Positions 3,186-38,979 of a DNA stretch of 44,019 nt are shown piece after piece. Positions within the stretch are counted from its first letter, which is position 1; every line of letters starts with the position of its first letter. Origin of the DNA: a virus; IMG/VR virus record IMGVR_UViG_3300011200_000001; one strand, given 5' to 3'. The notes beneath the pieces are model-generated. The model saw only the letters and a program-made list of their open reading frames with translations. It did not search any database and had not been told where the DNA came from. The position numbers were made by a program, and so were the translations under genes.

Positions 3186-3511
3186 CAGGCACGCACCAGG
3201 GCGACGGTGACCGTGGTCACGGCTGAGTACGTCCACGAGATCAGCCCGGTGGCCAGGTCAGCCAGGGACGCGGGGAGGTGGATCAGGACGTCGCCCGTCG
3301 TGGCTGGGACGCTCACTGCGACGTCGGGTTTGGCTTGTGCGTAGTCGCTGCCGGGGACCACGACAGTGACGGTGATCGCGCCACCGCTGCCGTTCTTGAC
3401 GCGCAGGAACGTGCGGTCATCGGGCTGGCAGGTGTCACCACCAGCACCAGCGGCCACGAACGCGGGGGTGATCCCCGTGACGGGGACCTGTTGAGGAACT
3501 AAGAAGGCCAT
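3185..3511 (-). CDS. hypothetical protein (108 aa, beta-rich), translationally coupled to the tail genes
   Basis: ATG at 3511 with GAAAGG upstream. High GC3. No motif recognised. Confidence 0.65.
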   Translation of the reverse strand: MAFLVPQQVPVTGITPAFVAAGAGGDTCQPDDRTFLRVKNGSGGAITVTVVVPGSDYAQAKPDVAVSVPATTGDVLIHLPASLADLATGLISWTYSAVTTVTVALVRA

Positions 3512-3558
3512 CAGGGATTACCTTTCGATGTGGTGGATCGGGGTGTTGATGGGCGGGA

Positions 3559-3969
3559 CTATTCCGGGTCAACAGGAGTGGGGTCAGGGCGGGCGGGCCA
3601 GTGCCAGGTGTGAGGTTCGGTGTCCTCCCCCTGACACGCGCTCGATGCCCAGAACGTGTCGTTGCCGTCAAGGAAGACCTGCCCCTGAACGGTGGTTGAT
3701 TCGGGACTCCAGACGCGAACGATCAACATCGGGAAGGTGTCACCTGCTGCCACTGCGTTGCCGACGTGAATGATGACCCCAGAACTTGCGTCGATGTGCT
3801 CGATGCGGTGTGACTCGGCATCTTTCCGACGCTTGTTGATCGCGAGAGCATCGTGCGCGCCGATGGTAAAGATGACGATCCTGCCGATGGTGGGGGCTGT
3901 CATGGTGCTCCTTCTGATGTTGTGCGGGTAGATCGGGCAGTCACCGAAGTAGCCGATTGGCTCGGTCAT
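3559..3969 (-). CDS. hypothetical protein (136 aa, or 114 aa from ATG 3903)
   Basis: Both ATG 3969 (GAGGAGGAGG upstream) and ATG 3903 (GAAGGAG upstream) have strong ribosome-binding sites. The codons between them have high GC3. Confidence 0.65.
   Translation of the reverse strand: MTEPIGYFGDCPIYPHNIRRSTMTAPTIGRIVIFTIGAHDALAINKRRKDAESHRIEHIDASSGVIIHVGNAVAAGDTFPMLIVRVWSPESTTVQGQVFLDGNDTFWASSACQGEDTEPHTWHWPARPDPTPVDPE
3560..3587 (-). repeat. tandem-TGACCC element, copy c (inside the last codons of 3559..3969)
   Basis: The minus strand reads CTGACCCCACTCCTGTTGACCCGGAATAG. Confidence 0.7.
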
Positions 3970-3987
3970 CCTCCTCCTCTGTCGCGC

Positions 3988-4014
3988 ATCTCCGGGTCTT
4001 AGGTAGTGGGGTCA
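3988..4014 (-). repeat. tandem-TGACCC element, copy d (starts on the stop codon of 4012..4170)
   Basis: The minus strand reads TGACCCCACTACCTAAGACCCGGAGAT. Confidence 0.7.
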
Positions 4015-4170
4015 GGCGGGCGTCACACGCAGCCATTCCGGGCTGTCCATAATCGCGGCGCGGGCACCAGTGAGCCGTGGCTGTTGCTCCTTCGGTAGTG
4101 CCGCCAGTTCCTTGACGACGTCTCGCAGATGCTCGTGGAGCCAGCCATGTGGGAACAGTTGGTCGTTCAT
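4012..4170 (-). CDS. small hypothetical protein (52 aa)
   Basis: Own translation: MNDQLFPHGWLHEHLRDVVKELAALPKEQQPRLTGARAAIMDSPEWLRVTPA. AAAGGAG sits 4-5 nt before the ATG at 4170. The ORF is below the track length cut-off. Confidence 0.55.
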   Translation of the reverse strand: MNDQLFPHGWLHEHLRDVVKELAALPKEQQPRLTGARAAIMDSPEWLRVTPA

Positions 4171-4249
4171 CTCACTCCTTTCGAGGCGCTGGTATGCCGG
4201 GTCGAAAGGAGGGGGTGACGCGGGTCACCTAGACGGATGTGTATAGAGG

Positions 4250-4278
4250 TAGACAGGACTCACTCATCTCTGTATAGT
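4250..4278 (+). promoter_or_regulatory. sigma-A/sigma-70-like promoter TAGACA-17 nt-TATAGT for the plus-strand cassette
   Basis: TAGACA at 4250-4255, a 17-nt spacer, then TATAGT at 4273-4278. GGAGAGGG and the ATG at 4322 follow about 45 nt downstream. Confidence 0.5.
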
Positions 4279-4287
4279 CATATACAG
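4270..4287. promoter_or_regulatory. palindromic operator candidate CTGTATA-gtca-TATACAG overlapping the -10 hexamer
   Basis: A perfect 7+7 inverted repeat. An extra TGTATAG half-site lies at 4240-4246. Confidence 0.5.
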
Positions 4288-4321
4288 AAGGGCAGGAGAT
4301 ACCAGCCCGGGAGAGGGAAAC

Positions 4322-4714
4322 ATGCCGATTCTCAGCCAGGCCACAGACCACCGACTCACCCTCGGTGACGAGCTGGACACCATCCTCGCGGCGACCTACG
4401 CGCAGGACGGTCGGGCACTCTTCGACGCCAAGGCCGCGCACTACAGCAACGTGATCTCGCTCCACGGCATGGAGCACCCGACGATGGCAGCCCTGATGGT
4501 GGCTCACCCGTACATCGAAGGCGCGCCGCTGGAGGTCGAGCTCATCACTGAGTACCAGGCCAGCAACATCGCGAAGCTCGAAGCCAAGATCGGTCGCAGC
4601 TGGACGGAGTTCACGGACGCACCCTCTGGGACCCCGGCGACCAGCATCGCCCAGCGCGACTTCGTCAAGCTCATGAAGGTCCTCCTCGCGGCCGCTGGGT
4701 ACCCGAAGTCATGA
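4322..4714 (+). CDS. hypothetical protein (130 aa), first gene of the opposite-strand cassette
   Basis: ATG follows GGAGAGGG. Typical GC3. The stop overlaps the next start (ATGA). No motif recognised. Confidence 0.8.
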   Translation: MPILSQATDHRLTLGDELDTILAATYAQDGRALFDAKAAHYSNVISLHGMEHPTMAALMVAHPYIEGAPLEVELITEYQASNIAKLEAKIGRSWTEFTDAPSGTPATSIAQRDFVKLMKVLLAAAGYPKS

Positions 4715-5154
4715 TCACCACCACGCAGCTTGTAGAGATCGTCCAGGCCCACGGATACGCCGACTACGACGCCGCGACTGTCGAGGGGTTGATCGAGGAC
4801 GCGGTCCTTGAGCTGAACGGCGACGACGGCGGCATGGACACCATCATCAAGTCGGGAGACGAGTACACCGACGACGCAGGGATGTGGATTACGAGCTACC
4901 TGGAGGAGCAGATTCATCCCGATCCCCAGAAGGTCGCGGTCGACGCAGAGGAGGCAGAGCTCGCCGAGATGGACCAGCGGGCCGACCTCAAGCGCATGGC
5001 AGAGAACTACCGCCGCACGCACCAGTGGGATCTCAATGCGCTTGAGTATCTCCGGGTCGCGATGCGTGAGGCCGCCCCGACGATGAGCGAGTCCGAAATC
5101 GCCAGAGTCGCAGGCGTCACCCGGATGACCGTCCGCAAAGCCCTTGGGAAGTGA
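4711..5154 (+). CDS. acidic protein with C-terminal helix-turn-helix (147 aa)
   Basis: The C-terminus SESEIARVAGVTRMTVRKALGK looks like an HTH. The N-terminal half is rich in D/E. The gene is coupled to the upstream gene. Confidence 0.8.
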   Translation: MITTTQLVEIVQAHGYADYDAATVEGLIEDAVLELNGDDGGMDTIIKSGDEYTDDAGMWITSYLEEQIHPDPQKVAVDAEEAELAEMDQRADLKRMAENYRRTHQWDLNALEYLRVAMREAAPTMSESEIARVAGVTRMTVRKALGK

Positions 5155-5165
5155 CCCCGAAAGGT

Positions 5166-5182
5166 GTGGCGAGAGGCGCCAC
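5166..5182. terminator. hairpin GTGGCG-agagg-CGCCAC between convergent genes (weak bidirectional terminator candidate)
   Basis: A 6-bp GC stem followed by tatt on the plus strand. It lies 12 nt after the stop at 5154. Confidence 0.3.
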
Positions 5183-5210
5183 TATTCCGGGTCACTGTGG
5201 TCTCGGGTCA
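5182..5210 (-). repeat. tandem-TGACCC element, copy e (starts on the stop codon of 5208..5402)
   Basis: The minus strand reads TGACCCGAGACCACAGTGACCCGGAATAG. Confidence 0.65.
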
Positions 5211-5402
5211 AGGGCCGCAAGCGTCGGGACCGTCCGAGGTCCCAACGCGGTGCTTATCCAGCGCCTCGATCCTGTCGATGAGTGCGATCAGCCACTCAGG
5301 GTTTACTGAGACGTAGGACTTGCCGGTGTCGATGCAGTGCTGGGCGTTCTGTCGAGCCATCTCAGCACTGAGCATGGGGTCGTTGGTCATGTACTGGATC
5401 AT
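5208..5402 (-). CDS. hypothetical protein (64 aa)
   Basis: ATG at 5402 is directly preceded by GAAGGAGG. No motif recognised. Confidence 0.6.
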   Translation of the reverse strand: MIQYMTNDPMLSAEMARQNAQHCIDTGKSYVSVNPEWLIALIDRIEALDKHRVGTSDGPDACGP

Positions 5403-5432
5403 CCTCCTTCGGCGCTAGAGATGGGGTGGTCG

Positions 5433-5459
5433 TTATCCGGGTCAACAGTGGTGGGGTCA
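5433..5459 (-). repeat. tandem-TGACCC element, copy a (starts on the stop codon of the deacetylase gene)
   Basis: The minus strand reads TGACCCCACCACTGTTGACCCGGATAA. Confidence 0.75.
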
Positions 5460-6857
5460 GAGGCCCCTGGCGATCACTTCACCGAGAGGGCGCACAGCGA
5501 TGCCAGAAGCCGAGATGTTGCCCATGACGGTGGTGAAGTTCGCTGTCGAATATTCGGTAGCCACAGTGGGCGCGGCCACGATGTTGTGAAAGTTGATGAT
5601 GAGCCACGACTTGTTGGCAACGGCTTCGGCTACCGCTGTCGCGATGGTCGCTGTCGTCGTGGTGTTCACGACCTCTAGGCACCGCAGGAGGTACTGGTTG
5701 CCAGGGGGCCACGTCTCGTGGTTGACGTTGTCACCGATGGTGCGGCCCGTGGCGAAAACCTTCGCGACCTGGGCGAGGCTGTTGGCGTCGAACCCCCCAC
5801 CGGGGTAGGCGACATGCTGAGACCCTGCGGCGAAGCCGTTGTCGATGTACCACTTACGCAGGGCAACGAATCGGGCCAGGAGAACGTCAGGGGCCACATT
5901 GTCGAAGGTGTCGATGTCGTGGGCGGTGATCTCCCAACCGTGAACGTCCTGCAAGGTATGAAGGTTCGCCAAGGTCATGAACGTGGGGTCATCGACGCCG
6001 CTTGGGATGATGTTCGCGGTGCCTCTGATGCCGTATGCGTCCATGATGGGGCGGGCAGTGAGGAACTGGGACTCTTTGCCGTCATCGAAACACACCGACA
6101 CAGCGCCAGCGGGCGGCTCCGGGAACGCACCGATCCCACCGAACCAGACATTGACCGGGCCAGATACGCCGGTGTCCTTGACTTGGACTCGGAGAGCGTT
6201 GATGGCAGCCCTGTTCGGTGTTCCGGTCGCTCCGTCTGTGGCGAAGTTCAGGGTCACACGGGTCCAGGTGTTCGCCACGAGGGGGTTCCGTGGTCCGCCG
6301 TTCTTGTATGCCTCGAAGTTGAAGTAGTTGGTCCACGTCGATGCGTCAGAGCCGAGCAGGATACGGACGGACGCGGTCAGTACCGGGTTGTCTACCTTGA
6401 TCCACACCACCACCTGTTTGCCAGTCAGATCGTATGGGCCGACGTTGGCGTTCTTCTGCACGGTGCAGTTGGTATTCAGTGTGGTGGTGGTCAGTTTGAG
6501 CGACTGTGTCCCGAGCGCGTAAGTCGTCGTGTCGTCCGCGAGGGCACCAGCCGCTGACTGTTTGCTGAACCCGTGCCCGGCAGCGAAAAGCGTGAGCATC
6601 TGGGTGACCTGCGGGGTCGGCACCCGGACCGGTCTGTCTGACGTCAGAAACGTGGAATTTAGTAGTGCCCGCTCGGCGGTGATCGCAGCGTCAAGCTCGG
6701 CCTGCGAAACCGTCCACCCAGCATCAGGGGGGACCGTTCCAGGAGGCACCACCGGGGCGGCAGCCACAACCCAGCCGAGGGTGTCCCACCCGTCATAGAA
6801 GGCTTTGTCGAGGACGGTCTTGACGACGCCGGGCAACGAAGGGTGCGACATCCACAT
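5457..6857 (-). CDS. tail-fibre-like protein with C-terminal polysaccharide deacetylase (NodB/CE4-type) domain
   Basis: CE4-like motifs are present: VCFDDG, GWEITAHD and VAYPGGGF. A central beta-rich domain looks CBM-like. The first 30 aa match 27/30 with ORF 36919..38388. Confidence 0.75.
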   Translation of the reverse strand: MWMSHPSLPGVVKTVLDKAFYDGWDTLGWVVAAAPVVPPGTVPPDAGWTVSQAELDAAITAERALLNSTFLTSDRPVRVPTPQVTQMLTLFAAGHGFSKQSAAGALADDTTTYALGTQSLKLTTTTLNTNCTVQKNANVGPYDLTGKQVVVWIKVDNPVLTASVRILLGSDASTWTNYFNFEAYKNGGPRNPLVANTWTRVTLNFATDGATGTPNRAAINALRVQVKDTGVSGPVNVWFGGIGAFPEPPAGAVSVCFDDGKESQFLTARPIMDAYGIRGTANIIPSGVDDPTFMTLANLHTLQDVHGWEITAHDIDTFDNVAPDVLLARFVALRKWYIDNGFAAGSQHVAYPGGGFDANSLAQVAKVFATGRTIGDNVNHETWPPGNQYLLRCLEVVNTTTTATIATAVAEAVANKSWLIINFHNIVAAPTVATEYSTANFTTVMGNISASGIAVRPLGEVIARGL

Positions 6858-7004
6858 GGTGGCTCCTGCCGAAAAACCATATTGAGTTAGGCGGGCACCG
6901 ATGCGGTGAGCCGTTGAACACTGACTACGCGGGCACGCTTGCCGTCAGCCAGCGATCAACCGAGAACAGGACAGGGGGCGGTGTCACCCACACACGTGGG
7001 GTGG

Positions 7005-7433
7005 CTACGGCTGAACGTTGAACACGTCGAACAGGATCGGGACGTACCAGCGGGAAGGGCTCACTGCCAGGTCCTGACGGATAGGACCAGGGTCAGTCGA
7101 CTCATTCACCAGCCCACCGGAAGTGGTCAACCTGACTCCCGTCAACGCCGAGCGGACTTTCTTGGCTGCGGTCAACACCCGGTTCACGTCCCCACCAGCA
7201 GCTGTGACCTGGAAGGACCAGGCCAGGTGTGAGGGCGCGCCCGTCAGGTTCCCGGGGATGTTGCGGCCGGGGGAGACGTAGAGCACGGCGTACATGTGTG
7301 CTCGCCCGTCCGGGTCCATCCGCACTGAGCCTTGACCCGCGTCGTCGACGGACCCGTCGAACACGTCCAGGTTCGTCGTCGTCATCAAAACTGCCAGCGC
7401 TGCGTCATGCAGGACAGCCACGTCCAGGGTCAC
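7005..7433 (-). CDS. putative tail terminator / tail completion protein
   Basis: A 142-aa ORF whose GTG start overlaps the upstream stop (GTGA). It lies after the HK97 gp10-like gene. The call is positional. Confidence 0.55.
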   Translation of the reverse strand: MTLDVAVLHDAALAVLMTTTNLDVFDGSVDDAGQGSVRMDPDGRAHMYAVLYVSPGRNIPGNLTGAPSHLAWSFQVTAAGGDVNRVLTAAKKVRSALTGVRLTTSGGLVNESTDPGPIRQDLAVSPSRWYVPILFDVFNVQP

Positions 7434-7783
7434 AGGAGCTTCTCCGTGATCCGGCCGAGGGCGTCTGCGAACTCGCCGGCATGACGGTCGAACGCTGGAC
7501 CCATGTATGCCGCCGGGCCTTGAGTGGACGTGCCGTACTCGACGTGAGCCCCATAGTTGGCGGTTGGCCCGACCTCGGCAGTCAGCCCTTTCACGTCGCA
7601 GCTGATGCTGTTGCGCAGGTTCCCGGTGTCGACGGGGGCGAACATCTTGGCGTCACGTTCGATGTCGGCGCTCGACTTCTCCAGCACCTTCCGGGCTAGC
7701 GGCACCATCTTCGCGGGGATCCGCCCGAGGTCGACTGCGAGCCGGTTGAAGTCGGACAGGTCGATGTCGAAACCGTCTCCCAT
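7430..7783 (-). CDS. HK97 gp10-family head-tail joining protein
   Basis: The motif run FAPVDTGNLRNSI...GPTANYGAHVEYGT is typical of the HK97 gp10 family. A strong GAGGAGG ribosome-binding site is present. Confidence 0.75.
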   Translation of the reverse strand: MGDGFDIDLSDFNRLAVDLGRIPAKMVPLARKVLEKSSADIERDAKMFAPVDTGNLRNSISCDVKGLTAEVGPTANYGAHVEYGTSTQGPAAYMGPAFDRHAGEFADALGRITEKLL

Positions 7784-10313: not shown

Positions 10314-11615
10314 TCAGGCCTCCTTGATCTGGTGGCCGAATGCAGAGGCCACGGCTTTGTCGACGTCGGCCTCGGTGACCTCGCCCTTGGTGTTGTCGGT
10401 CCGGCCGAAGTTGGTGACCTTGCCGACGCCGAACGCCTCACCGATCGAGGCGACCTCGGTCTCGGCGGCGGTGCGAGCGGCCTCAACGGCGGTGCGGAAC
10501 GCGGCCTCGTCGAACGTCCCGTCCGCCGCGAGAGTGATGCTCGAGACCGCGGCCTCGATGACCCTGGCAGCGACCACCGGGGGCAGCTGCGTGGACTCGC
10601 CGACCAGGGTGGTCGCGATGGGCCGTGCGGTGTCACGGGCTTCGGACACGGCACGCTCACGGCGCGCGGTGTCCCTCTCGGCGATGGCTGAGTCGCGCTC
10701 AGCCTCTAGCACGGCGACCCGGCTAGAGTCCGCCTCGAGCTGGCTCAGTCGAGCCTCCTCGATCTGTGGCATGGTTTTCTCCTTTGGTGGCCCAGCCGGG
10801 ATGACTGGAACGTTGATGGCCGCCTCGATGGCGGCGGCGATGACCTGCGGGTCTTCCCACAGGTCACGGGTGTACAGCTGCGGCGCGGACGCCCGCAAAG
10901 CGGTGGTGAACGCGTCCAGCGCGTCACCGACCGCGCCGCTCATAGCGATTCGTTCCTCGCGGGAGAGGCGCCCGTCGCCGAACATCTCGTCAGCGTGGCG
11001 CGTGAAGTCCAGGTGCATCCTCGCCTCGAACCACTGACCCACGTTGCGGGCCTCACGCAGCAAGGTCAGGGACGCTGCAGGGGTGAACCCTGCCTCGGCC
11101 GTCGACAGGGCCGACTCGAGGACCTGCAGGATCTTCCCGCCGCGGCCGGCGTCCGTGACGTAGTCAGCCGACACTCCCTCGACGAGCTCTGTCACGATGA
11201 CGCCTTGTCGGCCTTCTGCCTCGCCCGATTCGACGTGGGCTGCGGCGCGGATGCTGACGCCGATGGCTTCCTTCATCTCAGCCAGCACTTCACGGTAGGG
11301 GCCGAAGACCTGCGCCTCAGCGACAAGCGCGCCACGCGCTTTGTCCCAGTGGGCGTCTTCGGTGAGCATGCCGGCGATGTCGCGGACCGACCGTTCAGGT
11401 CGGTCCTGCGCTTCGCTGTACGACGGGTGATCCAGGAACGTCTTCATGCCCGCCTTGAACACGCCAGCCTTGCCTGCAGCCTCAAGGACTTGGGCCGAGT
11501 AGTGCCCTGAGCTGCCCCACCCTGGTGTGATGAGCTGCAGCACGAAGCGGCCCTCGGCGTCGGGTGCGGCGACCTGGCCTAGGTCGGCCTCGGTGAGCTG
11601 GATCCGCTGCGGCAT
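10314..11615 (-). CDS. capsid maturation protease fused to a coiled-coil scaffold-like C-terminus
   Basis: ATG at 11615 follows GGGAGG. The N-terminus ...LITPGWGSSGHYSAQVLEAAG...FLDHPS...RPERSVRDIAG is typical of actinophage prohead proteases. The C-terminal half is Ala/Glu/Arg-rich and helical. Confidence 0.75.
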   Translation of the reverse strand: MPQRIQLTEADLGQVAAPDAEGRFVLQLITPGWGSSGHYSAQVLEAAGKAGVFKAGMKTFLDHPSYSEAQDRPERSVRDIAGMLTEDAHWDKARGALVAEAQVFGPYREVLAEMKEAIGVSIRAAAHVESGEAEGRQGVIVTELVEGVSADYVTDAGRGGKILQVLESALSTAEAGFTPAASLTLLREARNVGQWFEARMHLDFTRHADEMFGDGRLSREERIAMSGAVGDALDAFTTALRASAPQLYTRDLWEDPQVIAAAIEAAINVPVIPAGPPKEKTMPQIEEARLSQLEADSSRVAVLEAERDSAIAERDTARRERAVSEARDTARPIATTLVGESTQLPPVVAARVIEAAVSSITLAADGTFDEAAFRTAVEAARTAAETEVASIGEAFGVGKVTNFGRTDNTKGEVTEADVDKAVASAFGHQIKEA

Positions 11616-11645
11616 GGTGGGTTCCTCCCGGTCGTGGGATCGTGG

Positions 11646-11807
11646 ATGGCGATGAGTGACGATGACGACGCGGACTGCGTCGAACACCTCTGGGTGATGA
11701 CCGGTGCCACGTTCGACATGGACGGCGCGCACCTGGACCACGCCTGCAGCAGGTGTGGTGCCGTGATGTTGGTCGGGCCAGACGAGCTGACCGGGAAGGT
11801 TGGTTAG
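11646..11807 (+). CDS. small acidic Cys/His protein (53 aa), opposite strand, in the MuF-protease gap
   Basis: Own translation: MAMSDDDDADCVEHLWVMTGATFDMDGAHLDHACSRCGAVMLVGPDELTGKVG. GC3 is about 83 percent, against about 69 percent for the in-frame minus-strand extension. It fills a 188-nt gap. Confidence 0.4.
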   Translation: MAMSDDDDADCVEHLWVMTGATFDMDGAHLDHACSRCGAVMLVGPDELTGKVG

Positions 11808-12862
11808 GCGACCAGTCGCCCGAGCGGGGTCGGCGCCCAAGAGTCACGCCAACCGGGGGTGACCCGCTTCGTGGACAGGTCCGCCCAGCCGATGTGTCCC
11901 CTGTCGAGGAGCTCGACACGCTGCGGGCCCATGACCGAGACCCGGTCTGCGTGCGGGAGGTCGTCGAACACAGCGCGCGCGTCGGGCAGGACTGACGCCG
12001 GCTCATCCAAACCACCGAACCCGAGCTGCGCCCACGTCTTAGTGACCGGGACCCCGACGCAGCGGCCCTGCTGGTGGTCGTGAGGCCCAGCATCGTCGAC
12101 GTCGTGCGTGGACCCATGCAGTGACCAACACGACGGGCAGGTCCGTTTGTCGAGCTGGGCGACCCACTGCCAACCGGTCAACGTGTCAGCGTTCGCCTTG
12201 TTCGCCGCGGTGGTCGCGGCCCGGTGCGCGTCAAGGATCTCGGTGCGGGCGATGACCAGGGCACGGTTGCGGCCGCCTTCGAACGCGCCCTGGACCCGGT
12301 CCAGCATGATGCTCGCGGCCTTGCGGGGGTTGTCGCCGATCGCAACACCGCGGATCAGCGCCGATCGCATGGCCTGCTCAGCCTGGGCAGACAACGGCCG
12401 GGACAGCGCAGTCACCCGGCCGGTGGTCCTCTTCACGACCGCGTCCAGGGCGCGGGGGTCGACCCGGTTGAACGACGCCGCGAGCTCGGCCTGCGTCCCG
12501 GCAACTGGCGGGAGCTGTGAGGCGGTGAGCCGGGCCTGCCACTGCGCGGCCGCGGTGGTGAGGTTGGGCACGTCCTGCAGGACGGTGATGGGGAGGTCCT
12601 TGACCAGCTGGTTGAGTGCGTCACGGGTGACCTTGACGGCGTTGCGCGCACGTTGCGCGCGGTTGATCTTGGTCCGCGATGGCCACGCCCCGTCGGTGGA
12701 CGTGGCGACCAGGTCGTTGATGGCGGCGTCCCACTCGGCGGCGACCTCGGTCCATGCCGCGCCCCACGCGGTGATGAGGGCCTGAGTGGCTGCGTCGACG
12801 GGGGCGTTGACGGCGATCCGCATCCCGGAGAGGAGCCGCATGGTGGCTTTGGTAACAGCCAT
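11804..12862 (-). CDS. head morphogenesis protein (SPP1 gp7 / Mu F-like)
   Basis: The motif ...WVAQLDKRTCPSCWSLHGSTH... is typical of the MuF family. The gene lies downstream of the portal gene. Confidence 0.8.
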   Translation of the reverse strand: MAVTKATMRLLSGMRIAVNAPVDAATQALITAWGAAWTEVAAEWDAAINDLVATSTDGAWPSRTKINRAQRARNAVKVTRDALNQLVKDLPITVLQDVPNLTTAAAQWQARLTASQLPPVAGTQAELAASFNRVDPRALDAVVKRTTGRVTALSRPLSAQAEQAMRSALIRGVAIGDNPRKAASIMLDRVQGAFEGGRNRALVIARTEILDAHRAATTAANKANADTLTGWQWVAQLDKRTCPSCWSLHGSTHDVDDAGPHDHQQGRCVGVPVTKTWAQLGFGGLDEPASVLPDARAVFDDLPHADRVSVMGPQRVELLDRGHIGWADLSTKRVTPGWRDSWAPTPLGRLVA

Positions 12863-16773: not shown

Positions 16774-16871
16774 GGGGTCACCTCGAAGGCCGGTCAGGGC
16801 GGGGCATGCGTGAGGCCCGAGAGCGGGGTGCTCGATCGGGCCTTGGGCATAGTCGTGCTGTCGTTTTCATA

Positions 16872-18896: not shown

Positions 18897-19411
18897 GACA
18901 CCACCTCACGCACGTACGAACCACTGGTGACGCCCGCGGCAAACGTGTCAGCGGCCAGAACAGCCAGGGCGTAGGCCTGCCAGATATCCGCCCGGAAGCC
19001 GTAGAACCACCCCGGCGAGGCCTTGGTGCCCTTGCCGCGGTTGGGCTGGCCCGAGGCGAACCGGTCGATCAACGCCTGGGTGATGTTCGAGTCCTTGGCC
19101 TTCGAGGTCCCGCAGAGGTGGAGCTTCACGTCACGGCGGTAGACGAGGTCGACCTCAGCGAATAGGTCAAGGCTCACTTCAAGGAATCGGCCGACCCAGA
19201 CGCAGGTTTCGAATACTTCTTTCCCGACTGCCATTCCATAGCTCGCGACCATTTCGATAGCGACCAGGTCGGCATTCAGCCCGCCATGACTGACGCAGTC
19301 CCTGAGGTCCGTGTTGGGAATCTTCCCGACGTCAATGGGTGAGCAATTAGTGCCCTCAATGAGGGCGTAACCGGATTCGGTGTTTCCTGGATCAATAGCG
19401 AGGATGCGCAT
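18893..19411 (-). CDS. RuvC-like Holliday junction resolvase
   Basis: The start MRILAIDPGNTESGYALIEG matches the RuvC catalytic motif. The longer track ORF (to 19789) would run through the iteron array. Confidence 0.75.
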   Translation of the reverse strand: MRILAIDPGNTESGYALIEGTNCSPIDVGKIPNTDLRDCVSHGGLNADLVAIEMVASYGMAVGKEVFETCVWVGRFLEVSLDLFAEVDLVYRRDVKLHLCGTSKAKDSNITQALIDRFASGQPNRGKGTKASPGWFYGFRADIWQAYALAVLAADTFAAGVTSGSYVREVVS

Positions 19412-19478
19412 GCGGTCCTGGTTTCCTGGGTTGTGTTGATGGGTTCTGGTCCCTCTGGCCGCCGGCCCCCGCGCGCGC

Positions 19479-19512
19479 GGGTGTGTGCGTGTACGCGCGG
19501 GCGCACACACCC
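19479..19512. repeat. 11-bp perfect inverted repeat GGGTGTGTGCG-12 nt-CGCACACACCC flanking the iteron array
   Basis: Read directly. It lies in the 443-bp non-coding gap 19412-19854. Confidence 0.7.
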
Positions 19513-19528
19513 CGTAGGGGGAGGGTTT

Positions 19529-19838
19529 GGGACAAGCGAATCGTGTTGTGTGGCAATGGGTTTCGTTTTCGGCGGTTTTGGGACAAGGTGTATAAGTGCA
19601 GGTCAGGGCTTGTCCCAAGGGGTTTGGGACAAGCTGGGACACGTGGGTAATCCGGGTTTTGGGTGGTGCCTGTAACCCTCTGACCTGCGGGTATGTCTTG
19701 GGCGCTATGTGGTGCGTTGGTGCTTGGGACAGGAATGGCTTGGGACACGTGGGACAAGACGCGTTTGCGCAGGTCAGGGCTTGTCCCAAGGGGTTTGGGA
19801 CAGCCTGGGACAGATGGGACAGGGTTGGTGGTGGGACA
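19529..19838. repeat. iteron array: 13 copies of GGGACA (mostly TTGGGACAAG-like), including two 44-bp direct repeats and two palindromic pairs; probable replication origin
   Basis: Direct copies start at 19529, 19580, 19626, 19636, 19726, 19742, 19751, 19797, 19807, 19816 and 19833. Inverted copies are at 19611 and 19782. The 44-bp repeats are at 19598-19641 and 19769-19812. Confidence 0.7.
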
Positions 19839-19854
19839 GATCTTGGCCCTCATG

Positions 19855-21279
19855 TCAGTCCTCGATTTCGAAGGAGTGGACGAGGTTGACGAGCTCCATC
19901 TGGCGGGCGTCCATGATGCGTTGGACGGTTGATCTAGGAATGCATGAGGCGTCGCTGACTTCACGCACGGTGAGTTTCTTTCCGGCGGCAGTAATGGTGT
20001 TGCGGATGGTGTACCAGCGTTGATCGTTGAGGCTACTGACGGCATTCCAGGGCCATTCTCCGCCCCTTTGTAGGGCTGGGGGGAACTGTCGTTCTTCGCG
20101 CATTCCGCGCCAATGGGTGAGGTCTCCGTCTTCGGATAGGTGGAGGCCGAACTCTGGCCAGCGCAGCCACCCGGACCAGCCGTAGGGTTCTTTGGGGCGG
20201 TTCTTGGGGTTGCCGTTGGCGGATTTGGCGCTGTGGGCTTCGAGGACGACGGCGAGGTCGTGGCGGGCGCGTAGGGCGTCCAGTGCGATGGCTGCCGGTT
20301 TGGACTCGACCTCTTTGATGGGGTCGCCGTTGGCGAGCTTGTAGATGGGGCCGGTGATGAGCAGGTCGGGGCTGTGGTGGGCGATGAGGGCGGCGAGCCA
20401 GGCTTGGTCTTCGGGTGCGGACAGGTTGAGGCCTTCGACTTTGCAGGCGATGACGAGGTTGGTTGGGTCCAGGTCGTGGCCGGCGGCCAGGCGTAGGGGG
20501 CGCATCTTGCGGCGGGTTTGGCGTTCGGAGTTCTCCAGGTCGAGGACGAGCACTTTGTGTGGGTCGCAGAGTTCGCCGGTGAAGGGGTGGATGCCGGCGG
20601 CGATCTGGGTGGCCCATTGGCGCAGGAGGGTGCTTTTGCCGTGGCCTTCGCCCGCGGTGAGGATGAGTCGGTCCTGTCGTTCGAGCATGCCGGGGACGAG
20701 CCAGTCGTAGTGGTCGTCGGCTGCGCCTGCGCCTAGGAAGGTGTCGACGTCCTGGCCGGGCATGTTGGCTCGGTCTGCGCTGAGGCGTTGGTCGTCCTCA
20801 AGGTGGTCGCGTAGGAGGCGTAGTGCGACGTTGTGGGATGTCTCGTCGGGTGAGCGGGCGGTTTGCGCGAGCCGGGTGGCCAGGGTGGCGTCGCGGCGTT
20901 GTGCTTGCAGGTGTAGGAGCCGCCCGGCGTAGTAGGTGGCTGAGCCGGGGGTGGCGACGCCTGCGACGAGTTCATGTAGGTAGGCGGGGCCACCTGCGCG
21001 GTGGAGGTTGCCGCGGCGGTCGAGTTCGTCGGTGACGGTGATCGTGTCGATGGGGGTGCCGGTGACGGCGAGGGTGAGGACTGCGGTCCAGGTGAGCTCG
21101 TGGGCTGGGCTGTAGAAGGTTTGGGAGGTGATGCCTTGGTCGCGGAGTTCGGTGATGACGGCGGGGTAGAGCATGGTGGTGCCCAGGACCATGCGTTCGT
21201 AGTCGTTGTTGTGGGGTAGGTCGGTGGGGGGTTGGTCTTCGGGTGGTATGGGGTGGAGGTATCGGGCTTCGTTGCTCAA
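19855..21279 (-). CDS. DnaB N-terminal domain + RepA/AAA_25-type ATPase + C-terminal HTH replication protein
   Basis: The N-terminus resembles a DnaB N-terminal domain (ERMVLGTTMLYP...). A Walker A motif GEGHGKST is present. The C-terminus LTVREVSDASCIPRSTVQRIMD is an HTH. TTG start follows GAGGTG. Confidence 0.75.
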   Translation of the reverse strand: MSNEARYLHPIPPEDQPPTDLPHNNDYERMVLGTTMLYPAVITELRDQGITSQTFYSPAHELTWTAVLTLAVTGTPIDTITVTDELDRRGNLHRAGGPAYLHELVAGVATPGSATYYAGRLLHLQAQRRDATLATRLAQTARSPDETSHNVALRLLRDHLEDDQRLSADRANMPGQDVDTFLGAGAADDHYDWLVPGMLERQDRLILTAGEGHGKSTLLRQWATQIAAGIHPFTGELCDPHKVLVLDLENSERQTRRKMRPLRLAAGHDLDPTNLVIACKVEGLNLSAPEDQAWLAALIAHHSPDLLITGPIYKLANGDPIKEVESKPAAIALDALRARHDLAVVLEAHSAKSANGNPKNRPKEPYGWSGWLRWPEFGLHLSEDGDLTHWRGMREERQFPPALQRGGEWPWNAVSSLNDQRWYTIRNTITAAGKKLTVREVSDASCIPRSTVQRIMDARQMELVNLVHSFEIED

Positions 21280-21398
21280 GCCTGCCCACCTCTTTCGTGG
21301 TTGTTGGTGGTGTCGCCCGGCCGATGGCGCCTATCGGTGGGGGTCTGTGGTGCTGCTGTTTTTCGCCCAGGTCGTCGGGGGCGTTCGTGCGCGGGTGG

Positions 21399-27490: not shown

Positions 27491-27855
27491 GACGCACCGC
27501 CGTTGATGGCGCGGGCGACGGCGAGAGCGCTGCGCCCCTCGCCCGGACTGGCGCAGTAGACGGGACGCGCCACGTCGTCCAGCCAGTCGGCCAGCGCGAG
27601 GGCCACGAGCGGGTTCATGGCCGCGATGTACGCACGGTCCTGGGGTTGCAGCGACTCGGCGATGAGATACCCGCCGTAGCTGTCATCCCAGCCCCAGCCA
27701 CCGCCATGTAGACGTCCTTCGGGTTGGACGTCTGACACAAGCGCGGCGTAACGGTTGAGACCGTCAACAGACGACTCCCGCCACGGCCCGGGCGTCGCAG
27801 CCTCGGCTAACGCCCGCAGCCTGGTCGCGGCTGCTTTCAGTTCGTCGGCGGTCAT
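27487..27855 (-). CDS. hypothetical protein with PGPW motif (Ead/Ea22-like pattern)
   Basis: ATG at 27855 forms an ATGA overlap. Contains ...ATPGPWRES... Confidence 0.55.
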   Translation of the reverse strand: MTADELKAAATRLRALAEAATPGPWRESSVDGLNRYAALVSDVQPEGRLHGGGWGWDDSYGGYLIAESLQPQDRAYIAAMNPLVALALADWLDDVARPVYCASPGEGRSALAVARAINGGAS

Positions 27856-27995
27856 CGGAGTTGGCCGATGGGAACGAAGACCTCGGCATCGCAGGTGCGG
27901 CAGTGCAGCAAGACCTTGGTGACGCCCTTGGTGACGTGCACATCGGCGCCCTTGCAGTCGACGCGGTGCTGCAGGAACACCTCGCCGGGGCTCAC
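27852..27995 (-). CDS. small Cys-containing protein (47 aa)
   Basis: Own translation: (V)SPGEVFLQHRVDCKGADVHVTKGVTKVLLHCRTCDAEVFVPIGQLR. GTG follows GGAG and overlaps the recT stop (GTGA). Confidence 0.5.
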   Translation of the reverse strand: MSPGEVFLQHRVDCKGADVHVTKGVTKVLLHCRTCDAEVFVPIGQLR

Positions 27996-28837
27996 GTCCA
28001 CTCCGGCTCTGGGGTTTCGTCGCCGGACCCGTCGTGCTCGACGTCGACAGGGCCACTCCCGTCGTAGGTCGCCCCGGCCTCACCAGTGACGACGTCGACA
28101 CCATCCGGGGCTGCGGGTTCGGGGCTCTCGATGGCCTTGACCGCGAGCTGCTCGCGGCGCAGCTCGGTGCCCTTCTTCTCGTCGACCTCCAGTGCCGCGT
28201 TCAGGGTCGCGGACTTCGGCAGGAGCTTCACCAGCTGGCGCAGCGCGGTCTTACGTTCCATCCAGTGCATGGGGTCGGGTATGTTCCCCGACGGGCCGAC
28301 CTTCCCGCCTCGCAGGGACTTGACCTCTTCGGCCGACAAGACCACGAACGCCGACGCTCCGGTCGTCAGCTTCGCGACGGCGTAGTAGGCGATGACGTTC
28401 CCGCGGTCCACCCCGAGAGCGGGCTTGTGTCGCAGCATCGGCGCCAGACCGTACTCGTAGTCGAAGTCGTCCTTCTCGTGGACGGCCTGGGCGTCCAGGT
28501 GCGCAGCGAGCGGGCTCTGCCAGAACAGCTTCGCGAAGCCCTGATAGCCGATGATGAACTGGCACTCCCTCCCATACGGGACGAGGTACGCCTCACCATT
28601 GACGCCCGGTTCGAGGCCGAGGGCCGCCGACGTCAGGAGCGCGCCGGCGAAACTCTCAGGGGTACAGCGGGCCAGCTTTGGGTCCTTGCGCAGCACGGTC
28701 AGGGCCATCCGGGCCATCCGGTCGGCGTCCATGTGCTTGGGTAGCGCCCGGGCGATTTCGGGGCGGAGCTGCTGGATGACGGAGCCGATGGTGGGCTGGT
28801 CTGCGTCGCGCTGCGCGACGGCGTTACGGAGGCTCAT
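27992..28837 (-). CDS. recT: RecT-family single-strand annealing recombinase
   Basis: The sequence ...GLEPGVNGEAYLVPYG...IIGYQGFAKL... is typical of RecT. The gene is paired with an upstream YqaJ-type exonuclease. Confidence 0.85.
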   Translation of the reverse strand: MSLRNAVAQRDADQPTIGSVIQQLRPEIARALPKHMDADRMARMALTVLRKDPKLARCTPESFAGALLTSAALGLEPGVNGEAYLVPYGRECQFIIGYQGFAKLFWQSPLAAHLDAQAVHEKDDFDYEYGLAPMLRHKPALGVDRGNVIAYYAVAKLTTGASAFVVLSAEEVKSLRGGKVGPSGNIPDPMHWMERKTALRQLVKLLPKSATLNAALEVDEKKGTELRREQLAVKAIESPEPAAPDGVDVVTGEAGATYDGSGPVDVEHDGSGDETPEPEWT

Positions 28838-29727
28838 GCTGGGATTCCTGCTCTCTGGACGAGGCCTTTCGCGGCCACGAGGTACGGGATGGACCCATCG
28901 GCCTTCTTGGCCTGCCGGTAGGCGTAGGGCGTGCCGGCGAACCGCGCACGTTTGGCCATGCCCATGGCCGCTGCGACGCGGCTGGTGGCATAGGTTTTGG
29001 CGGCTTCGGCGTCCTTGAACTTGGCGAGGGCGTCGACGTAGGCAGCCGCGAGCTCCACGTCGAGCTCGTAGTCGGTGCCGTCGATCAGGGGGTGGAGTTT
29101 GCGGATCGCCTGGTAGGTCTGGTCGTGGCCGTCGAGGGTCGGCTGAACGCCTTCGCGGAGCGAGGCAAGGAATAGCTGAGCCTGCTCACGCAGGTACGCG
29201 GCATCGTCAGGCCTGGCGGTCACGACGTACTCGCGGAAGTCCAGGAAGGACGTGATGACTGCGACGTGCGCGATGTCCAGGCCGAGGGTGTCGAGCTGCC
29301 ACTGGACCTGGGCCATGTAGCCGAGGGGGATCTCGTCGGTGCCGGGCTCGCCCCATTCCCAGTCGTTCGTGGCGCTCTTGCACTCCAGGATCCGGCGTGG
29401 TTCATCGCTGGGCAGGTCGACGATGCCGTCGGGGGATGCGGACTGCCAAGGTCGGTCGGTGTTGACCCAGGTCCCGCAGGGGTGGTCGATGCGCCAGTCG
29501 GGGTGCTGGTCGGAGAACCATGCACGGATCGCAGGCTCGAGGTAGTGGCCTCGCCTGGTGATGTTGGTGTCAGGGTCCGGGGGGATGGTCCCGTTCATCT
29601 TGTGCCACATGGACAGCGGTGAGTCGTAGACGGAGAAACCGAGGATCGCGGAGATCTTCGACGCGGACATCCGCTTGAGCCACTCGGGTGAGCCAGGTTT
29701 CATGTCGGGGATCTGGGTTGCGGTCAT
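28834..29727 (-). CDS. YqaJ-like (lambda Exo-type, PD-(D/E)XK) recombination exonuclease
   Basis: Contains GSPEWLKRMSASKISAILG..., ASPDGIV and ILECKS motifs. Confidence 0.8.
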   Translation of the reverse strand: MTATQIPDMKPGSPEWLKRMSASKISAILGFSVYDSPLSMWHKMNGTIPPDPDTNITRRGHYLEPAIRAWFSDQHPDWRIDHPCGTWVNTDRPWQSASPDGIVDLPSDEPRRILECKSATNDWEWGEPGTDEIPLGYMAQVQWQLDTLGLDIAHVAVITSFLDFREYVVTARPDDAAYLREQAQLFLASLREGVQPTLDGHDQTYQAIRKLHPLIDGTDYELDVELAAAYVDALAKFKDAEAAKTYATSRVAAAMGMAKRARFAGTPYAYRQAKKADGSIPYLVAAKGLVQRAGIPA

Positions 29728-31353: not shown

Positions 31354-31382
31354 ACGATACACGGCGTAGACGGGCCTGTCTA
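31354..31382 (-). promoter_or_regulatory. leftward (early lytic) promoter candidate TAGACA-17 nt-TATCGT
   Basis: Read on the minus strand. The -35 hexamer and spacer are covered by operator O1. Confidence 0.45.
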
Positions 31383-31383
31383 C
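31366..31383. promoter_or_regulatory. operator O1: GTAGAC-GGGCCT-GTCTAC
   Basis: Perfect 6-bp inverted half-sites. An extra GTAGAC half-site lies at 31326-31331. Confidence 0.65.
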
Positions 31384-31435
31384 ATGCGGGAAGGGATTTC
31401 ATGTGGGTTGACCTGCCGGTTTGCAAGTTGCATCG

Positions 31436-31464
31436 TTGGAACTTGTAGACGGGCTGTCTACAGT
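31436..31464 (+). promoter_or_regulatory. rightward (repressor) promoter candidate TTGGAA-17 nt-TACAGT
   Basis: The hexamers were read directly. Operator O2 occupies the spacer and the -10. Confidence 0.45.
31445..31461. promoter_or_regulatory. operator O2: GTAGAC-GGGCT-GTCTAC
   Basis: Perfect 6-bp inverted half-sites. An extra GTCTAC half-site lies at 31481-31486. Confidence 0.65.
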
Positions 31465-32591: not shown

Positions 32592-33743
32592 CTACTCCTC
32601 CAGCGCCGTAGTTCCGCGCATCGCCGCGAAAGCGCTCAACGCGCCCGGTGCCACATCGGTCAGGAGACTGCCGTACACGTCGATCGTGGTCGAGATCGAC
32701 TCGTGACCAATCCGGGACTGCAGCTCAGGCAACGTCGCCCCAGACATCGCCATCCAGACCACGTGGGTATGCCGCAACCAGTGAGGTGACGGCTTACGCG
32801 CCAAGGCCGCGGCCTTGACCGCCGGAACCCAGGCCCGGTTCCGGAAGTTGCTGTAGTGCCACTGAGCACCGGTCGCGGTGGTGAACACCAGGCCGTCACC
32901 GGCGACGCGGGCGAGGCGCCGGGCCACCATCGCGGCAGCCTCGGGGTCGATTGCGATGCGCCGCTGACCAGCCTGCGACTTCGCGTCTTCGACGACCAGG
33001 TGCTGTCCCGCGGCGTTGCGGCGAACCACGTGGCTCATGGTGACGAATGTGATGCCACCCTCAGCCCAGACGTCGTACGCCGACAACGCTGCACCTTCGG
33101 ACCAGCGCCACCCTGTGGCCAGGAGGAACAGGGCAAGGTCCGCGGCGTCCTTGTCGATGAGCGTCAGTGCCGACTGGAGCGCCGCCCATTCGGCCGGCTT
33201 CAGCCCCCTCGGCTGGCCCCGGTGCCGTTTCGGGAGCTCGGTCCCGATGCAGGGGTTGGCCTCGACCAGGCGCCGGCTGGGGGCCAGGGCGTAGGCGTAG
33301 ATGGAGTGCAGGAGCGCATGCCGGTCGACGACGGACTTCGCGCTCAGTGCCTTCTTGTCCTTGGTGCCGGCATGCATGGTGTCGACCCAGGCCTGGACGT
33401 CGGACTCGTCCACGCCGCCAGCTGCTCGAGCTCCGAAGGTGGGCTTGATCCAGTTGGTGTAGTCGCGGCGGTAGTCGGCGATGGTGCGATCGGAGCGGAC
33501 CCGGGTGGCTTTCCAGGTGAAGAACGCTTCAGCGATGGCGTCGATGCTGGATGTGGCTGCCTGCTCGGTGTCGTGTAGGACGTGCAGGGCGTACCTGGCG
33601 TCGCGGGTGTTGATGTCGGAGCAGAATGCGCGGGCTTCGCGGAGGGTGTCGAAGGTCTCGGAGCAGCCGCTGCCGTCGAGGCGGAACCGGACCCGGTAGG
33701 TGGTCCTGCCGTCTTTGGCGACGTACTTGTGCGGGGTCGGCAT
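32592..33743 (-). CDS. int: tyrosine integrase
   Basis: ATG at 33743 (MPTPHKYVAKDGRTTYRVRF...). Catalytic-domain motifs are present: WRWSEGAAL, HWLRHTHV and VYGSL. The track ORF extends across attP and is not credible upstream of 33743. Confidence 0.85.
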   Translation of the reverse strand: MPTPHKYVAKDGRTTYRVRFRLDGSGCSETFDTLREARAFCSDINTRDARYALHVLHDTEQAATSSIDAIAEAFFTWKATRVRSDRTIADYRRDYTNWIKPTFGARAAGGVDESDVQAWVDTMHAGTKDKKALSAKSVVDRHALLHSIYAYALAPSRRLVEANPCIGTELPKRHRGQPRGLKPAEWAALQSALTLIDKDAADLALFLLATGWRWSEGAALSAYDVWAEGGITFVTMSHVVRRNAAGQHLVVEDAKSQAGQRRIAIDPEAAAMVARRLARVAGDGLVFTTATGAQWHYSNFRNRAWVPAVKAAALARKPSPHWLRHTHVVWMAMSGATLPELQSRIGHESISTTIDVYGSLLTDVAPGALSAFAAMRGTTALEE

Positions 33744-33810: not shown

Positions 33811-33835
33811 GGTGAGTGACGGGACTTGAACCCGT
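33811..33835 (-). other. attP core candidate: tRNA 3'-end mimic (T-arm plus acceptor strand)
   Basis: The minus strand reads ACGGG-TTCAAGT-CCCGT-CACTCAC-C, which is a T-stem, T-loop and acceptor 3' strand. No complete tRNA can be folded from upstream sequence. Confidence 0.5.
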
Positions 33836-33849
33836 TTTGGGGTGAGGCT

Positions 33850-34483: not shown

Positions 34484-34515
34484 CCTTGGGGGCTGCCCTC
34501 AGACGCACGAAAAGA

Positions 34516-34555
34516 CCCCCCTCGCCACCCGGGGTGGGGTGAGCGGCGAGAGGGG
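34516..34555 (-). terminator. rho-independent terminator ending the late operon (also downstream of the plus-strand lipoprotein gene)
   Basis: The minus strand reads CCCCTCTCGCC...GGCGAGGGGGG followed by TCTTTTCG. The stem has one mismatch. Confidence 0.6.
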
Positions 34556-34570
34556 TCGTCCTTGGTGGGG

Positions 34571-34882
34571 TCAGTCGGTGGGCTCGTTGACGTTCGGGAC
34601 GCGGAGCGATGCGCTCTGCCCAGCACACTGCATCGCACCAACGAGCCGATGCACGGTCCCCTTGGGCAGGATGTAGGAGTAGGTGTCGCCGTCCTCTGTA
34701 GTGCCGTACTGGGTGGCCTTCCAGAGAAGATCGCGAACGGCATCATAGACACGGTCGCGCGTGGTGAGTATCGCTACCATCTCGCTTGCTGTCGCTGCCC
34801 AGCGTTCGCGCCAGTAGGTCACTGCGGCTTCGGCATTGACCGGCTCGCTGGTCTCATTGATGAAGGCTGAGCCGCGGTCCAT
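34571..34882 (-). CDS. hypothetical protein (103 aa), last gene of the late operon
   Basis: ATG at 34882 overlaps the holin stop (TGATG). The stop is followed by TGACCCCACCAAGGACGACCCC, a partial copy of the tandem-TGACCC element. Confidence 0.65.
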   Translation of the reverse strand: MDRGSAFINETSEPVNAEAAVTYWRERWAATASEMVAILTTRDRVYDAVRDLLWKATQYGTTEDGDTYSYILPKGTVHRLVGAMQCAGQSASLRVPNVNEPTD

Positions 34883-35100
34883 CACTCGACCAGTGACGCG
34901 GAGTCGGAGCGTCCGATGTTGGTTGCGGCCAGCGCCTTCAACAGCGACAGGACTGCGCCGCCGAGGGCGAACCCGCCGACAGTGGCCCAGTCGGCGTTGA
35001 TGGCGTCGAACTGGTCAGCGGCGAACACGAGCAGCGCGGACTGTGCCGCGGTGGCAGCCGCACGCTCAGCGGCGTCCTTCCAGAACTTCGATGTGAAAAT
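34882..35100 (-). CDS. r1t-type holin (72 aa) with apparent ATT initiation codon
   Basis: Own translation: IFTSKFWKDAAERAAATAAQSALLVFAADQFDAINADWATVGGFALGGAVLSLLKALAATNIGRSDSASLVE. AGGAGG lies 5 nt before the ATT. An in-frame TAG, which is the lysin stop, lies 3 codons upstream. The first canonical start is 24 codons into the ORF. Confidence 0.65.
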   Translation of the reverse strand: MFTSKFWKDAAERAAATAAQSALLVFAADQFDAINADWATVGGFALGGAVLSLLKALAATNIGRSDSASLVE

Positions 35101-35109
35101 GGTGGCCTC

Positions 35110-35952: not shown

Positions 35953-36028
35953 GGTGTGGGGCCTTCCGTTGGTGTGGGTGTGGTCCTGCACGGTCCCGCC
36001 ACCGTGGAGTCTGTGCCGTCGTCGTAGG

Positions 36029-36760: not shown

Positions 36761-36894
36761 TGCGGGGCCTTTCGGTCGTGCTGGTGGCATCCTTTTATCC
36801 TTTGAGTAAAAGGGCGCATGGGGTCTGGACGCTCTCAGTTGGGTGGGTCAGGCACGCGCCGGGGGTCTAGGGCGCGCGTCAAGTAGGGCCAGGG

Positions 36895-36921
36895 ATATCC
36901 GGGTCATATGTGGTGGGGTCA
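36895..36921 (-). repeat. tandem-TGACCC element, copy b (starts on the stop codon of the SGNH tail protein gene)
   Basis: The minus strand reads TGACCCCACCACATATGACCCGGATAT. Confidence 0.75.
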
Positions 36922-38388: not shown

Positions 38389-38432
38389 GCGGGTCTCCTG
38401 CGGGGGTTGGGGTGGTGAGTGGCTGGTCAGGC

Positions 38433-38966: not shown

Positions 38967-38979
38967 GTGTGCTCCTTGG

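Follow-up and report, generated by a model that had tools for sequence, protein, structure and literature searches.

The DNA analysed here, referred to as the window, is the 44,019-nt IMG/VR record IMGVR_UViG_3300011200_000001, and its subject is a 27-nt, two-block sequence motif that recurs in it at the ends of genes. Almost every gene lies on the minus strand, so named throughout and serving as the coding strand. The window ends (positions 1–77 and 43943–44019) overlap exactly by 77 nt, so the window represents a circular assembly of 43,942 bp in which the tape-measure gene is split over the two ends; an identical 43.3-kb contig is present in Logan run ERR4837112. The window is the complete circular 43.9-kb genome of a temperate actinophage, and its gene content, including a tyrosine integrase, cI/cro-like genes, YqaJ exonuclease, RecT and DnaB, is what would be expected of a temperate siphophage infecting a high-GC actinobacterium. 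Its TerL reaches no more than 59% identity to that of Glutamicibacter and Arthrobacter phages, and no isolated phage matches the window at the DNA level. Comparisons were made with head-module relatives (L003–L008; major capsid protein 78–93% identical), with tail-module relatives (IMG/VR records G005, G006, and G007, found via the tail-tube protein, and also L147) and with one further metagenome contig, L284.

Five strong copies of the pattern TGACCCCAC-N6/7-TGACCCGGA are present, all on the minus strand and at the places claimed for them in an earlier sequence-only reading of this DNA. These, with one partial and one weak copy, are as follows.

Copy c1, 5433–5459, minus strand: TGACCCCACCACTGTTGACCCGGATAA; its TGA is the stop codon of the 466-residue anchor::CE4 deacetylase gene.
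Copy c2, 36895–36921, minus strand: TGACCCCACCACATATGACCCGGATAT; its TGA is the stop codon of the 489-residue anchor::SGNH gene.
Copy c3, 3560–3586, minus strand: TGACCCCACTCCTGTTGACCCGGAATA; within the last nine codons of a 136-residue gene, at the right edge of an accessory island.
Copy c4, 3988–4014, minus strand: TGACCCCACTACCTAAGACCCGGAGAT; its TGA is the stop codon of a 52-residue gene.
Copy c5, 5183–5210, minus strand: TGACCCGAGACCACAGTGACCCGGAATA; 7-nt spacer; its TGA is the stop codon of a 60-residue gene.
Partial copy c6, 34547–34573, minus strand: an exact block 1 on the stop codon of the last late gene.
Weak copy c7, 4193–4218, minus strand: TCACCCCCTCCTTTCGACCCGGCATA; motif-like in block 2 only.

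Fourteen positions are invariant over the five strong copies (TGACCC and GACCCGGA), with a variable stretch between them. In line with the earlier description, the gene upstream of four of the five is called as stopping at the first TGA; the exception is c3, where the 136-residue open reading frame (ORF) continues across the motif as far as the TAG of GGAATAG. This tally is to be read with the caveat that TGACC is a common stop context in the window, where 28 of 59 TGA stops have CC next, largely because of ATGACC start/stop overlaps.

The repetition exceeds chance by two counts. TGACCCCAC alone occurs six times, on the minus strand only, against a mean of 0.87 and a maximum of 4 in shuffled sequence; C or T comes next in five of the six, which bears out the claim that this 10-mer followed by C/T is found five times on one strand. 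The pattern TGACCCCAC-N6-TGACCCGGA, allowing up to three mismatches, gives four matches against 0.15 expected, and none of 100 shuffles reaches four; the fifth copy, with its 7-nt spacer, lies outside this count. A two-block weight matrix scores the five copies at 30–35 bits and the rest of the window at no more than 14 bits, the maximum on simulated sequence averaging 15 bits. Since the matrix was derived from the same five copies, the mismatch-pattern test is the independent statistic. The degenerate copies proposed earlier divide: c6 (block 1) and c7 (block 2) stand as plausible half-copies, and those at 6979–7007 and 16774–16797 are, on these scores, at chance level. The missing halves have other identities. 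The apparent block 1 of c7 is one arm of a palindrome (4214–4229) belonging to a reverse-oriented gene cassette described below, and the block-2 position of c6 (GACCCC) is the 5′ arm of the late-operon terminator.

Copies c1 and c2 follow two genes that begin alike.

Anchor-family gene 1, 5457–6857, minus strand: N-terminus MWMSHPSLPG.. joined to a CE4 deacetylase-like domain.
Anchor-family gene 2, 36919–38388, minus strand: the same N-terminus joined to an SGNH/GDSL esterase domain.

Only the first approximately 30 codons of these genes are common (27 of 30 residues identical). At their other ends, c1 and c2 match at 24 of 27 positions inside otherwise unalignable 3′ flanks. Further members of the family lie in G005 (27569–29131), G006 (19210–21333, reverse-complement coordinates), G007 (34775–36136), and L284 (50–1381). 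Across the six genes, from five phages, the common part extends only from residue 1 to approximately residue 55–90, carrying in the relatives the signature MWMSHP..GWDTLGWV, and the C-terminal parts are unrelated (CE4 deacetylase, SGNH esterase, and others). The anchor-family tail proteins are a domain-swapping hotspot.

The motif lies downstream of every anchor-family gene found, with one copy in each relative and five in the window. It sits directly at the stop codon in five of the six, and in G005 follows the next gene. The ends of the genes in the relatives read as follows.

G007, gene end: TAAcGACCCCCACCACTAATGACCCGGATAT.
G006, gene end: TAACCCCGTCAGATATGTCCCGGGATAT.
L284, gene end: TGACCCCCGTTACTAAAGTCCCG, after which the contig stops.
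G005: TGACCCCGGCCCATATGTCCCGGAAG, one gene beyond the anchor gene and on a TGA stop too.

The search of related phages that had been proposed as a check therefore recovers counterparts of c2 at the matching junction in G005, G006, G007, and L284, and these coincide with mosaic breakpoints. In G007 the 27-mer is approximately 90% identical to c2, with an unrelated domain upstream and a protein only 33% identical downstream; amid such diverged neighbors, the element outlasts its surroundings and marks the right-hand limit of the domain-swapping hotspot. The G006 copy is degraded, and block 2 in G005, G006, and L284 is TGTCCCGG or AGTCCCG.

Wider searches returned little else. IMG/VR yielded no relatives of the two esterase genes, and isolated phages contain no near or distant DNA match to the motif. 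An exact-pattern scan of IMG/VR gave two chance matches, both inside coding sequence; a metagenome scan gave 120 single matches, none related to the window and with no enrichment of TGA as a stop codon; and the block pattern GGATAT-N12-TTGACGCG recovered only G006 and G007 among 100 matches. The sole match in a scan of genome contigs, in Acidovorax, is unrelated. A separate repeat, TGACCG-N7-TGACCGTGA..TCAC, was seen in the early regions of G005 (5618–7505), G006 (36184–38990, reverse-complement coordinates), and G007 (11432–12801). It was rejected as a related regulatory motif, as manual translation shows that it encodes the common N-terminus MT.PADR.G..T of paralogous small early genes.

Hairpins follow several of the copies.

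5150–5196, convergent junction: compound inverted repeat, with an inner hairpin at 5166–5182 and outer arms at 5150–5166 and 5180–5196.
34510–34557, minus strand: intrinsic terminator directly after c6, a 17-bp stem and then UCUUUUCG.
36853–36879, minus strand: GC-rich hairpin, ACGCGCGCC..GGCGCGUG, 15 nt downstream of c2.

In all, a hairpin comes after c2, c5, c6 and the copies in G005, G006, and G007, with U tracts in c6 and G005 only (in G005, a 9-bp GC stem and then UUUUAU); none was found downstream of c1, c3, and c4. The hairpin after c2 falls in an intergenic block common to the window, G006, and G007. At c5, block 2 is itself the outer stem of the hairpin that comes next, and the plus-strand helix-turn-helix (HTH) gene that meets this junction from the other side likewise ends in TGACCCC. 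RNAalifold gave weak support to a consensus fold over three aligned junctions. The element does not fold internally, as had been stated from the sequence, and it was accordingly discarded as an intrinsic terminator in its own right and as a structured RNA; nor does it belong to an Rfam family, there being no match at the gathering threshold over the whole window and none at E ≤ 5 in 3300–7200.

All the window copies but c2 and c6 lie in one place.

Accessory island, 3512–7004, minus strand: 3.5 kb in the tail operon, holding c1, c3, c4, c5, and c7.

The island is missing from the head-module relatives (L003–L008), which lack the motif too, and from the tail-module relatives (G005–G007 and L147). 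Similarity to the head-module relatives ends at the stop codon of the gene 7433>7005 and returns in the tape-measure gene. In the tail-module relatives the connector genes run straight into the tail gene, and similarity to them restarts right after c3, at the junction of GGAATAG with TCCCGCCC...CCCCGATCC. L147 has both island-flanking genes side by side with no motif between them. At the connector/tail-gene junction L147 holds a different insert of approximately 250 nt (4826–5078), possibly a small reverse-strand ORF, and the junction therefore looks like a recurrent insertion hotspot. The island genes that lie between copies are unrelated to one another, so the repeat did not arise by tandem gene duplication. 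An antisense protein family running over the copies was also rejected, since the plus-strand frames across c1 and c3 differ on manual translation.

Some of the island genes have relatives elsewhere. The 136-residue gene (3559–3969) is phrog_19300, and its 46% identical homologs sit inside Gordonia phage lysis cassettes (L285, Gordonia phage Attis gp19), which suggests that the island genes come from a tail/lysis-junction type of locus. The reverse two-gene cassette (4171–5207) encodes a 130-residue protein and a 147-residue HTH protein, and has its own promoter (TAGACA-17-TATAGT) and a palindrome, GGTGACGCGGGTCACC. Homologs of the cassette, 43–46% identical, lie in G007 (39316–40315) between the lysis terminator and the integrase, flanked by direct repeats of approximately 45 nt, and G006 has an empty site at that position; the cassette is thus mobile. 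In G007 the cassette palindrome is followed by a T run and is terminator-like. TAGAC(A/G)G half-sites at the cassette promoter (4229–4262) resemble the immunity-region operator, so the cassette might be controlled by the phage repressor or Cro. The cassette is also flanked, at 5155–5166 and 4193–4205, by CCTTTCG as a short direct repeat (ACACCTTTCGGGG ... CCTCCTTTCGACCC, minus-strand reading), which may be microhomology left by its insertion.

We propose that the motif is a conserved element, specific to this lineage, that bounds exchangeable late-gene cassettes on their 3′ side; to this reading we assign a probability of roughly one half. A recombination boundary was one of several roles put forward in the sequence-only reading, and it is the one that the comparative data back: homology breaks off at the motif in four or five phages, the island has a copy at its right edge, and both the c2 counterparts and c3 are short conserved sequences between segments that are non-homologous in relatives. 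From these breakpoints we infer the following course of events. The original site would be the junction after a variable tail-enzyme gene, ahead of the lysis genes, a gene whose N-terminal virion anchor is conserved and whose C-terminal enzyme domain can be swapped. Phages would trade such domains, and small accessory genes as well, by recombination, with the left crossover in the conserved anchor codons or other shared sequence and the right crossover in or beside the short conserved block, so that every imported unit would end with a copy of the motif. Assembly of the island in the tail operon of the window would then have produced the four extra copies at new junctions. The YqaJ exonuclease and RecT encoded by the phage are in keeping with such exchange.

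Conservation of the motif among unrelated neighbors suggests that it should also have a function in cis, and this would probably be exerted through a host component, as the phages sharing the motif have no regulator gene in common. The motif may act on the late transcript, just past the translation stop and ahead of a terminator-like hairpin. A host-component function of this kind (termination, read-through, or stop–restart) is a better fit than a site for a phage repressor or an ordinary promoter. The RNA signal suggested in the sequence-only reading may hold in this modified form, as a post-stop element that precedes a hairpin.

Several observations weigh against a boundary element. The longest exact runs between copies are only 9–12 nt, very short for homologous recombination, and two conserved blocks around a free spacer are a sign of sequence-specific recognition, not of plain homology. 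In relatives the recipient junction lacks the motif, so at least one island edge would have arisen by illegitimate joining. Multiple copies occur in one genome only, and no donor phage was found that has the small island genes together with the motif. The cis function is itself a proposal, and the copies with no hairpin after them (c1, c3, and c4) do not share the context on which it draws. In favor of a boundary element, short conserved boundary sequences have been proposed as a route to phage mosaicism, though they are rarely found at real junctions (PMC3029335). The motif is like the boundary (linker) sequences of that modular-evolution model in being short, non-coding, located at gene boundaries and flanked by non-homologous segments at several junctions, and is unlike them in being bipartite and sequence-specific, in beginning on a stop codon and in having been amplified within one genome (PMC3029335).

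Of the other explanations, the one that survives best, though we regard it as unlikely, is a stop–restart attenuator. Here termination of the upstream gene would be coupled to re-initiation 11 nt later, at an NTG codon that opens block 2, and translation of the resulting mini-ORF of 7–19 codons would reach or cover the hairpin, making read-through into the lysis genes dependent on translation. The stop-to-restart spacer is 11 nt in six of eight copies. Block 2 opens with ATG in c2, G005, G006, and G007, which are related sequences and not independent evidence, and with TTG or GTG in c1, c3, and c5; in c4 and L284 the restart position holds AAG, and the restart codon has no preceding Shine–Dalgarno sequence. 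In G006 and G007 the predicted mini-ORF stops at the 5′ base of the hairpin; in G005 its stop precedes the terminator stem by 13 nt, and in c2 it falls just beyond the hairpin. Three of the window copies, however, have no hairpin to cover, and the weak RNAalifold result does not strengthen the case for a common one. An attenuator would account for the coding-strand orientation and the stop-codon overlap and, requiring no phage regulator, would suit phages that have none in common; it leaves the conserved CCCCACCAC of block 1 unexplained. The motif resembles leader-peptide transcription attenuators in having, at four related junctions, a short ORF whose end falls at or inside a terminator-like hairpin. 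It differs in lying inside an operon right after a stop codon, in lacking a Shine–Dalgarno sequence and an alternative antiterminator fold, and in that its mini-ORF is a prediction. That the 27-mer is a translation-coupled control point, at which the lysis genes and added cassettes are transcribed only while the upstream gene is translated, is in our view rather improbable. If true, the stop–restart–hairpin unit, being self-contained, would be portable, a ‘plug’ for adding genes to the late operon.

A DNA site at which a phage or host regulator binds the two TGACCC units, acting as a roadblock or insulator in the manner of a stoperator, is more doubtful still. In its favor, TGACCC is directly repeated in the two invariant blocks, which a variable spacer separates, the island encodes an HTH protein, and the copies share with stoperators a single orientation relative to transcription and a location at gene ends (PMC3029335, PMC13313380). 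The stoperators of Cluster A number approximately 20–35 copies over both arms of the genome, the figures for L5 and Bxb1 being those of PMC3029335. Like the stoperators of Clusters A and CA, the motif is asymmetric, short, in one orientation, intergenic or overlapping gene termini, and repeated in the genome. Those stoperators are 13–14 bp long, present 20–35 times per genome, and match the early-promoter operator of the repressor, whereas the motif is 27 nt in two blocks, has five copies (four of them within 1.9 kb), is unrelated to the immunity operators, and occurs in phages with different regulators. The 151-nt cI/cro intergenic region of the window contains GTAGAC-N5-GTCTAC palindromes (31445–31461 and 31366–31384), probable CI/Cro operators to judge by their sequence, and no copy of the motif. 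The stoperator-like interpretation offered earlier thus fails on two defining features, agreement with the immunity operator and copies that are numerous and dispersed. Moreover, the phages that share the motif have no common regulator gene at E < 1e-5; G006 lacks the HTH cassette, yet retains a degraded copy; the 15–16-bp spacing places the two units on opposite faces of the helix; and the direct repeat is not conserved, given the different block 2 of G005, G006, and L284.

The start-associated variant of a binding site suggested alongside it fares no better. Start-associated sequences (SAS) of Cluster K mycobacteriophages lie a fixed distance ahead of start codons, and the ribosome-binding site is part of them. 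The motif resembles SAS as a conserved short intergenic repeat of an actinophage that is oriented with transcription, but it is tied to the upstream stop codon, and the next start lies anywhere from 18 to 105 nt away, which places it outside this class; c5 and c6 have no downstream gene at all.

It is very doubtful that the motif is a promoter, either of the late operon or of an added accessory gene, with a TGACC unit as the −35 element and possibly an activator. Hexamers resembling a sigma-70/SigA −35 do occur in the blocks (TTGACC, ATGACC, or GTGACC), TTGACC itself being found in block 2 of c1 and c3 and, with the preceding T, in block 1 of c2 and c5, and most copies stand ahead of a gene. 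A TAGTTT was noted by eye 15–16 nt after block 2 in G006 and G007, and only there. In the window copies, however, there is no TANNNT at a consistent distance: the earlier failure to find a −10 was repeated with a promoter scanner, which detected none 16–19 nt downstream of a −35 at any copy and called no promoter at any copy or in G005 or G007. At c4 only 12 nt are left before the ribosome-binding site, c5 and c6 as promoters would fire straight into hairpins, and neither a sigma factor nor an RNA polymerase is encoded by the phage.

Equally hard to credit is that the copies have no present function and are relics of one ancestral junction, the stop codon and first codons of a lost gene, carried along by duplicated or imported segments. 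Copies c3, c4, and c5, in the island, have diverged further than c1 and c2, each relative has a single copy, and TGACC is a common stop/start context in this genome, all of which a relic would explain. A neutral 27-mer, however, should not remain approximately 90% identical between the window and G007 amid unalignable flanks, nor keep 24 of 27 positions between c1 and c2. Mycobacterial interspersed repetitive units (MIRUs) are chromosomal elements of 40–100 bp, tandemly variable, that overlap the upstream stop codon and can carry tiny coupled ORFs. The motif is likewise intercistronic, oriented with the operon and placed over the upstream stop codon, and differs from MIRUs as a single 27-nt unit in phage genomes.

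Least credible is a site-specific recombinase site, which would make the island an integron-like array of ORF-plus-site units: island genes are each bracketed by copies in the same orientation, one cassette is reversed and has its own promoter, the motif abuts stop codons and its sequence-specific blocks are kept across phages, but the site lacks inverted-repeat symmetry, the island neither contains nor adjoins a recombinase gene, and relatives have single copies and no arrays. Integron attC sites often adjoin stop codons, and integron cassette arrays share with the island the one-orientation units, the site beside the stop codon and the occasional reversed cassette with a promoter of its own. 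The blocks of the motif are a direct repeat with no internal complementarity, unlike the imperfect inverted repeat of attC (R″/L″...L′/R′), and the island has no adjacent integrase, attI, or Pc. The only integrase lies approximately 28 kb away.

Tyrosine integrase, 32592–33743: the single integrase of the genome, with a tRNA-like attP.

The attP region (33815–33845, minus strand) contains a look-alike of a tRNA 3′ end, ACGGGTTCAAGTCCCGTCACTCACCC, and the phage therefore probably integrates into a tRNA gene. It is unlike the motif, which was accordingly rejected as an integrase arm site or relative of attP. Elsewhere in the genome, a 443-nt non-coding field (19412–19854) with repeated (C)TTGTCCCAAACCC units and a 44-nt direct repeat adjoins the DnaB-like gene; it is likely to be the replication origin, and the Logan assembly broke there.

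Read as a boundary element of exchangeable cassettes, the 27-nt motif offers a clear case of a short sequence that, in five phages, closes a hotspot of tail-enzyme domain swapping on its 3′ side, and that in one of them also marks every unit of an accessory island. If its putative cis function, which we infer from its conservation among unrelated neighbors and which may be that of an attenuator, an RNA signal, or a binding site, can be worked out, it would show how extra genes enter an essential late operon without breaking it, and would provide a handle by which exchangeable receptor-binding or depolymerase modules in actinophages may be predicted or engineered.

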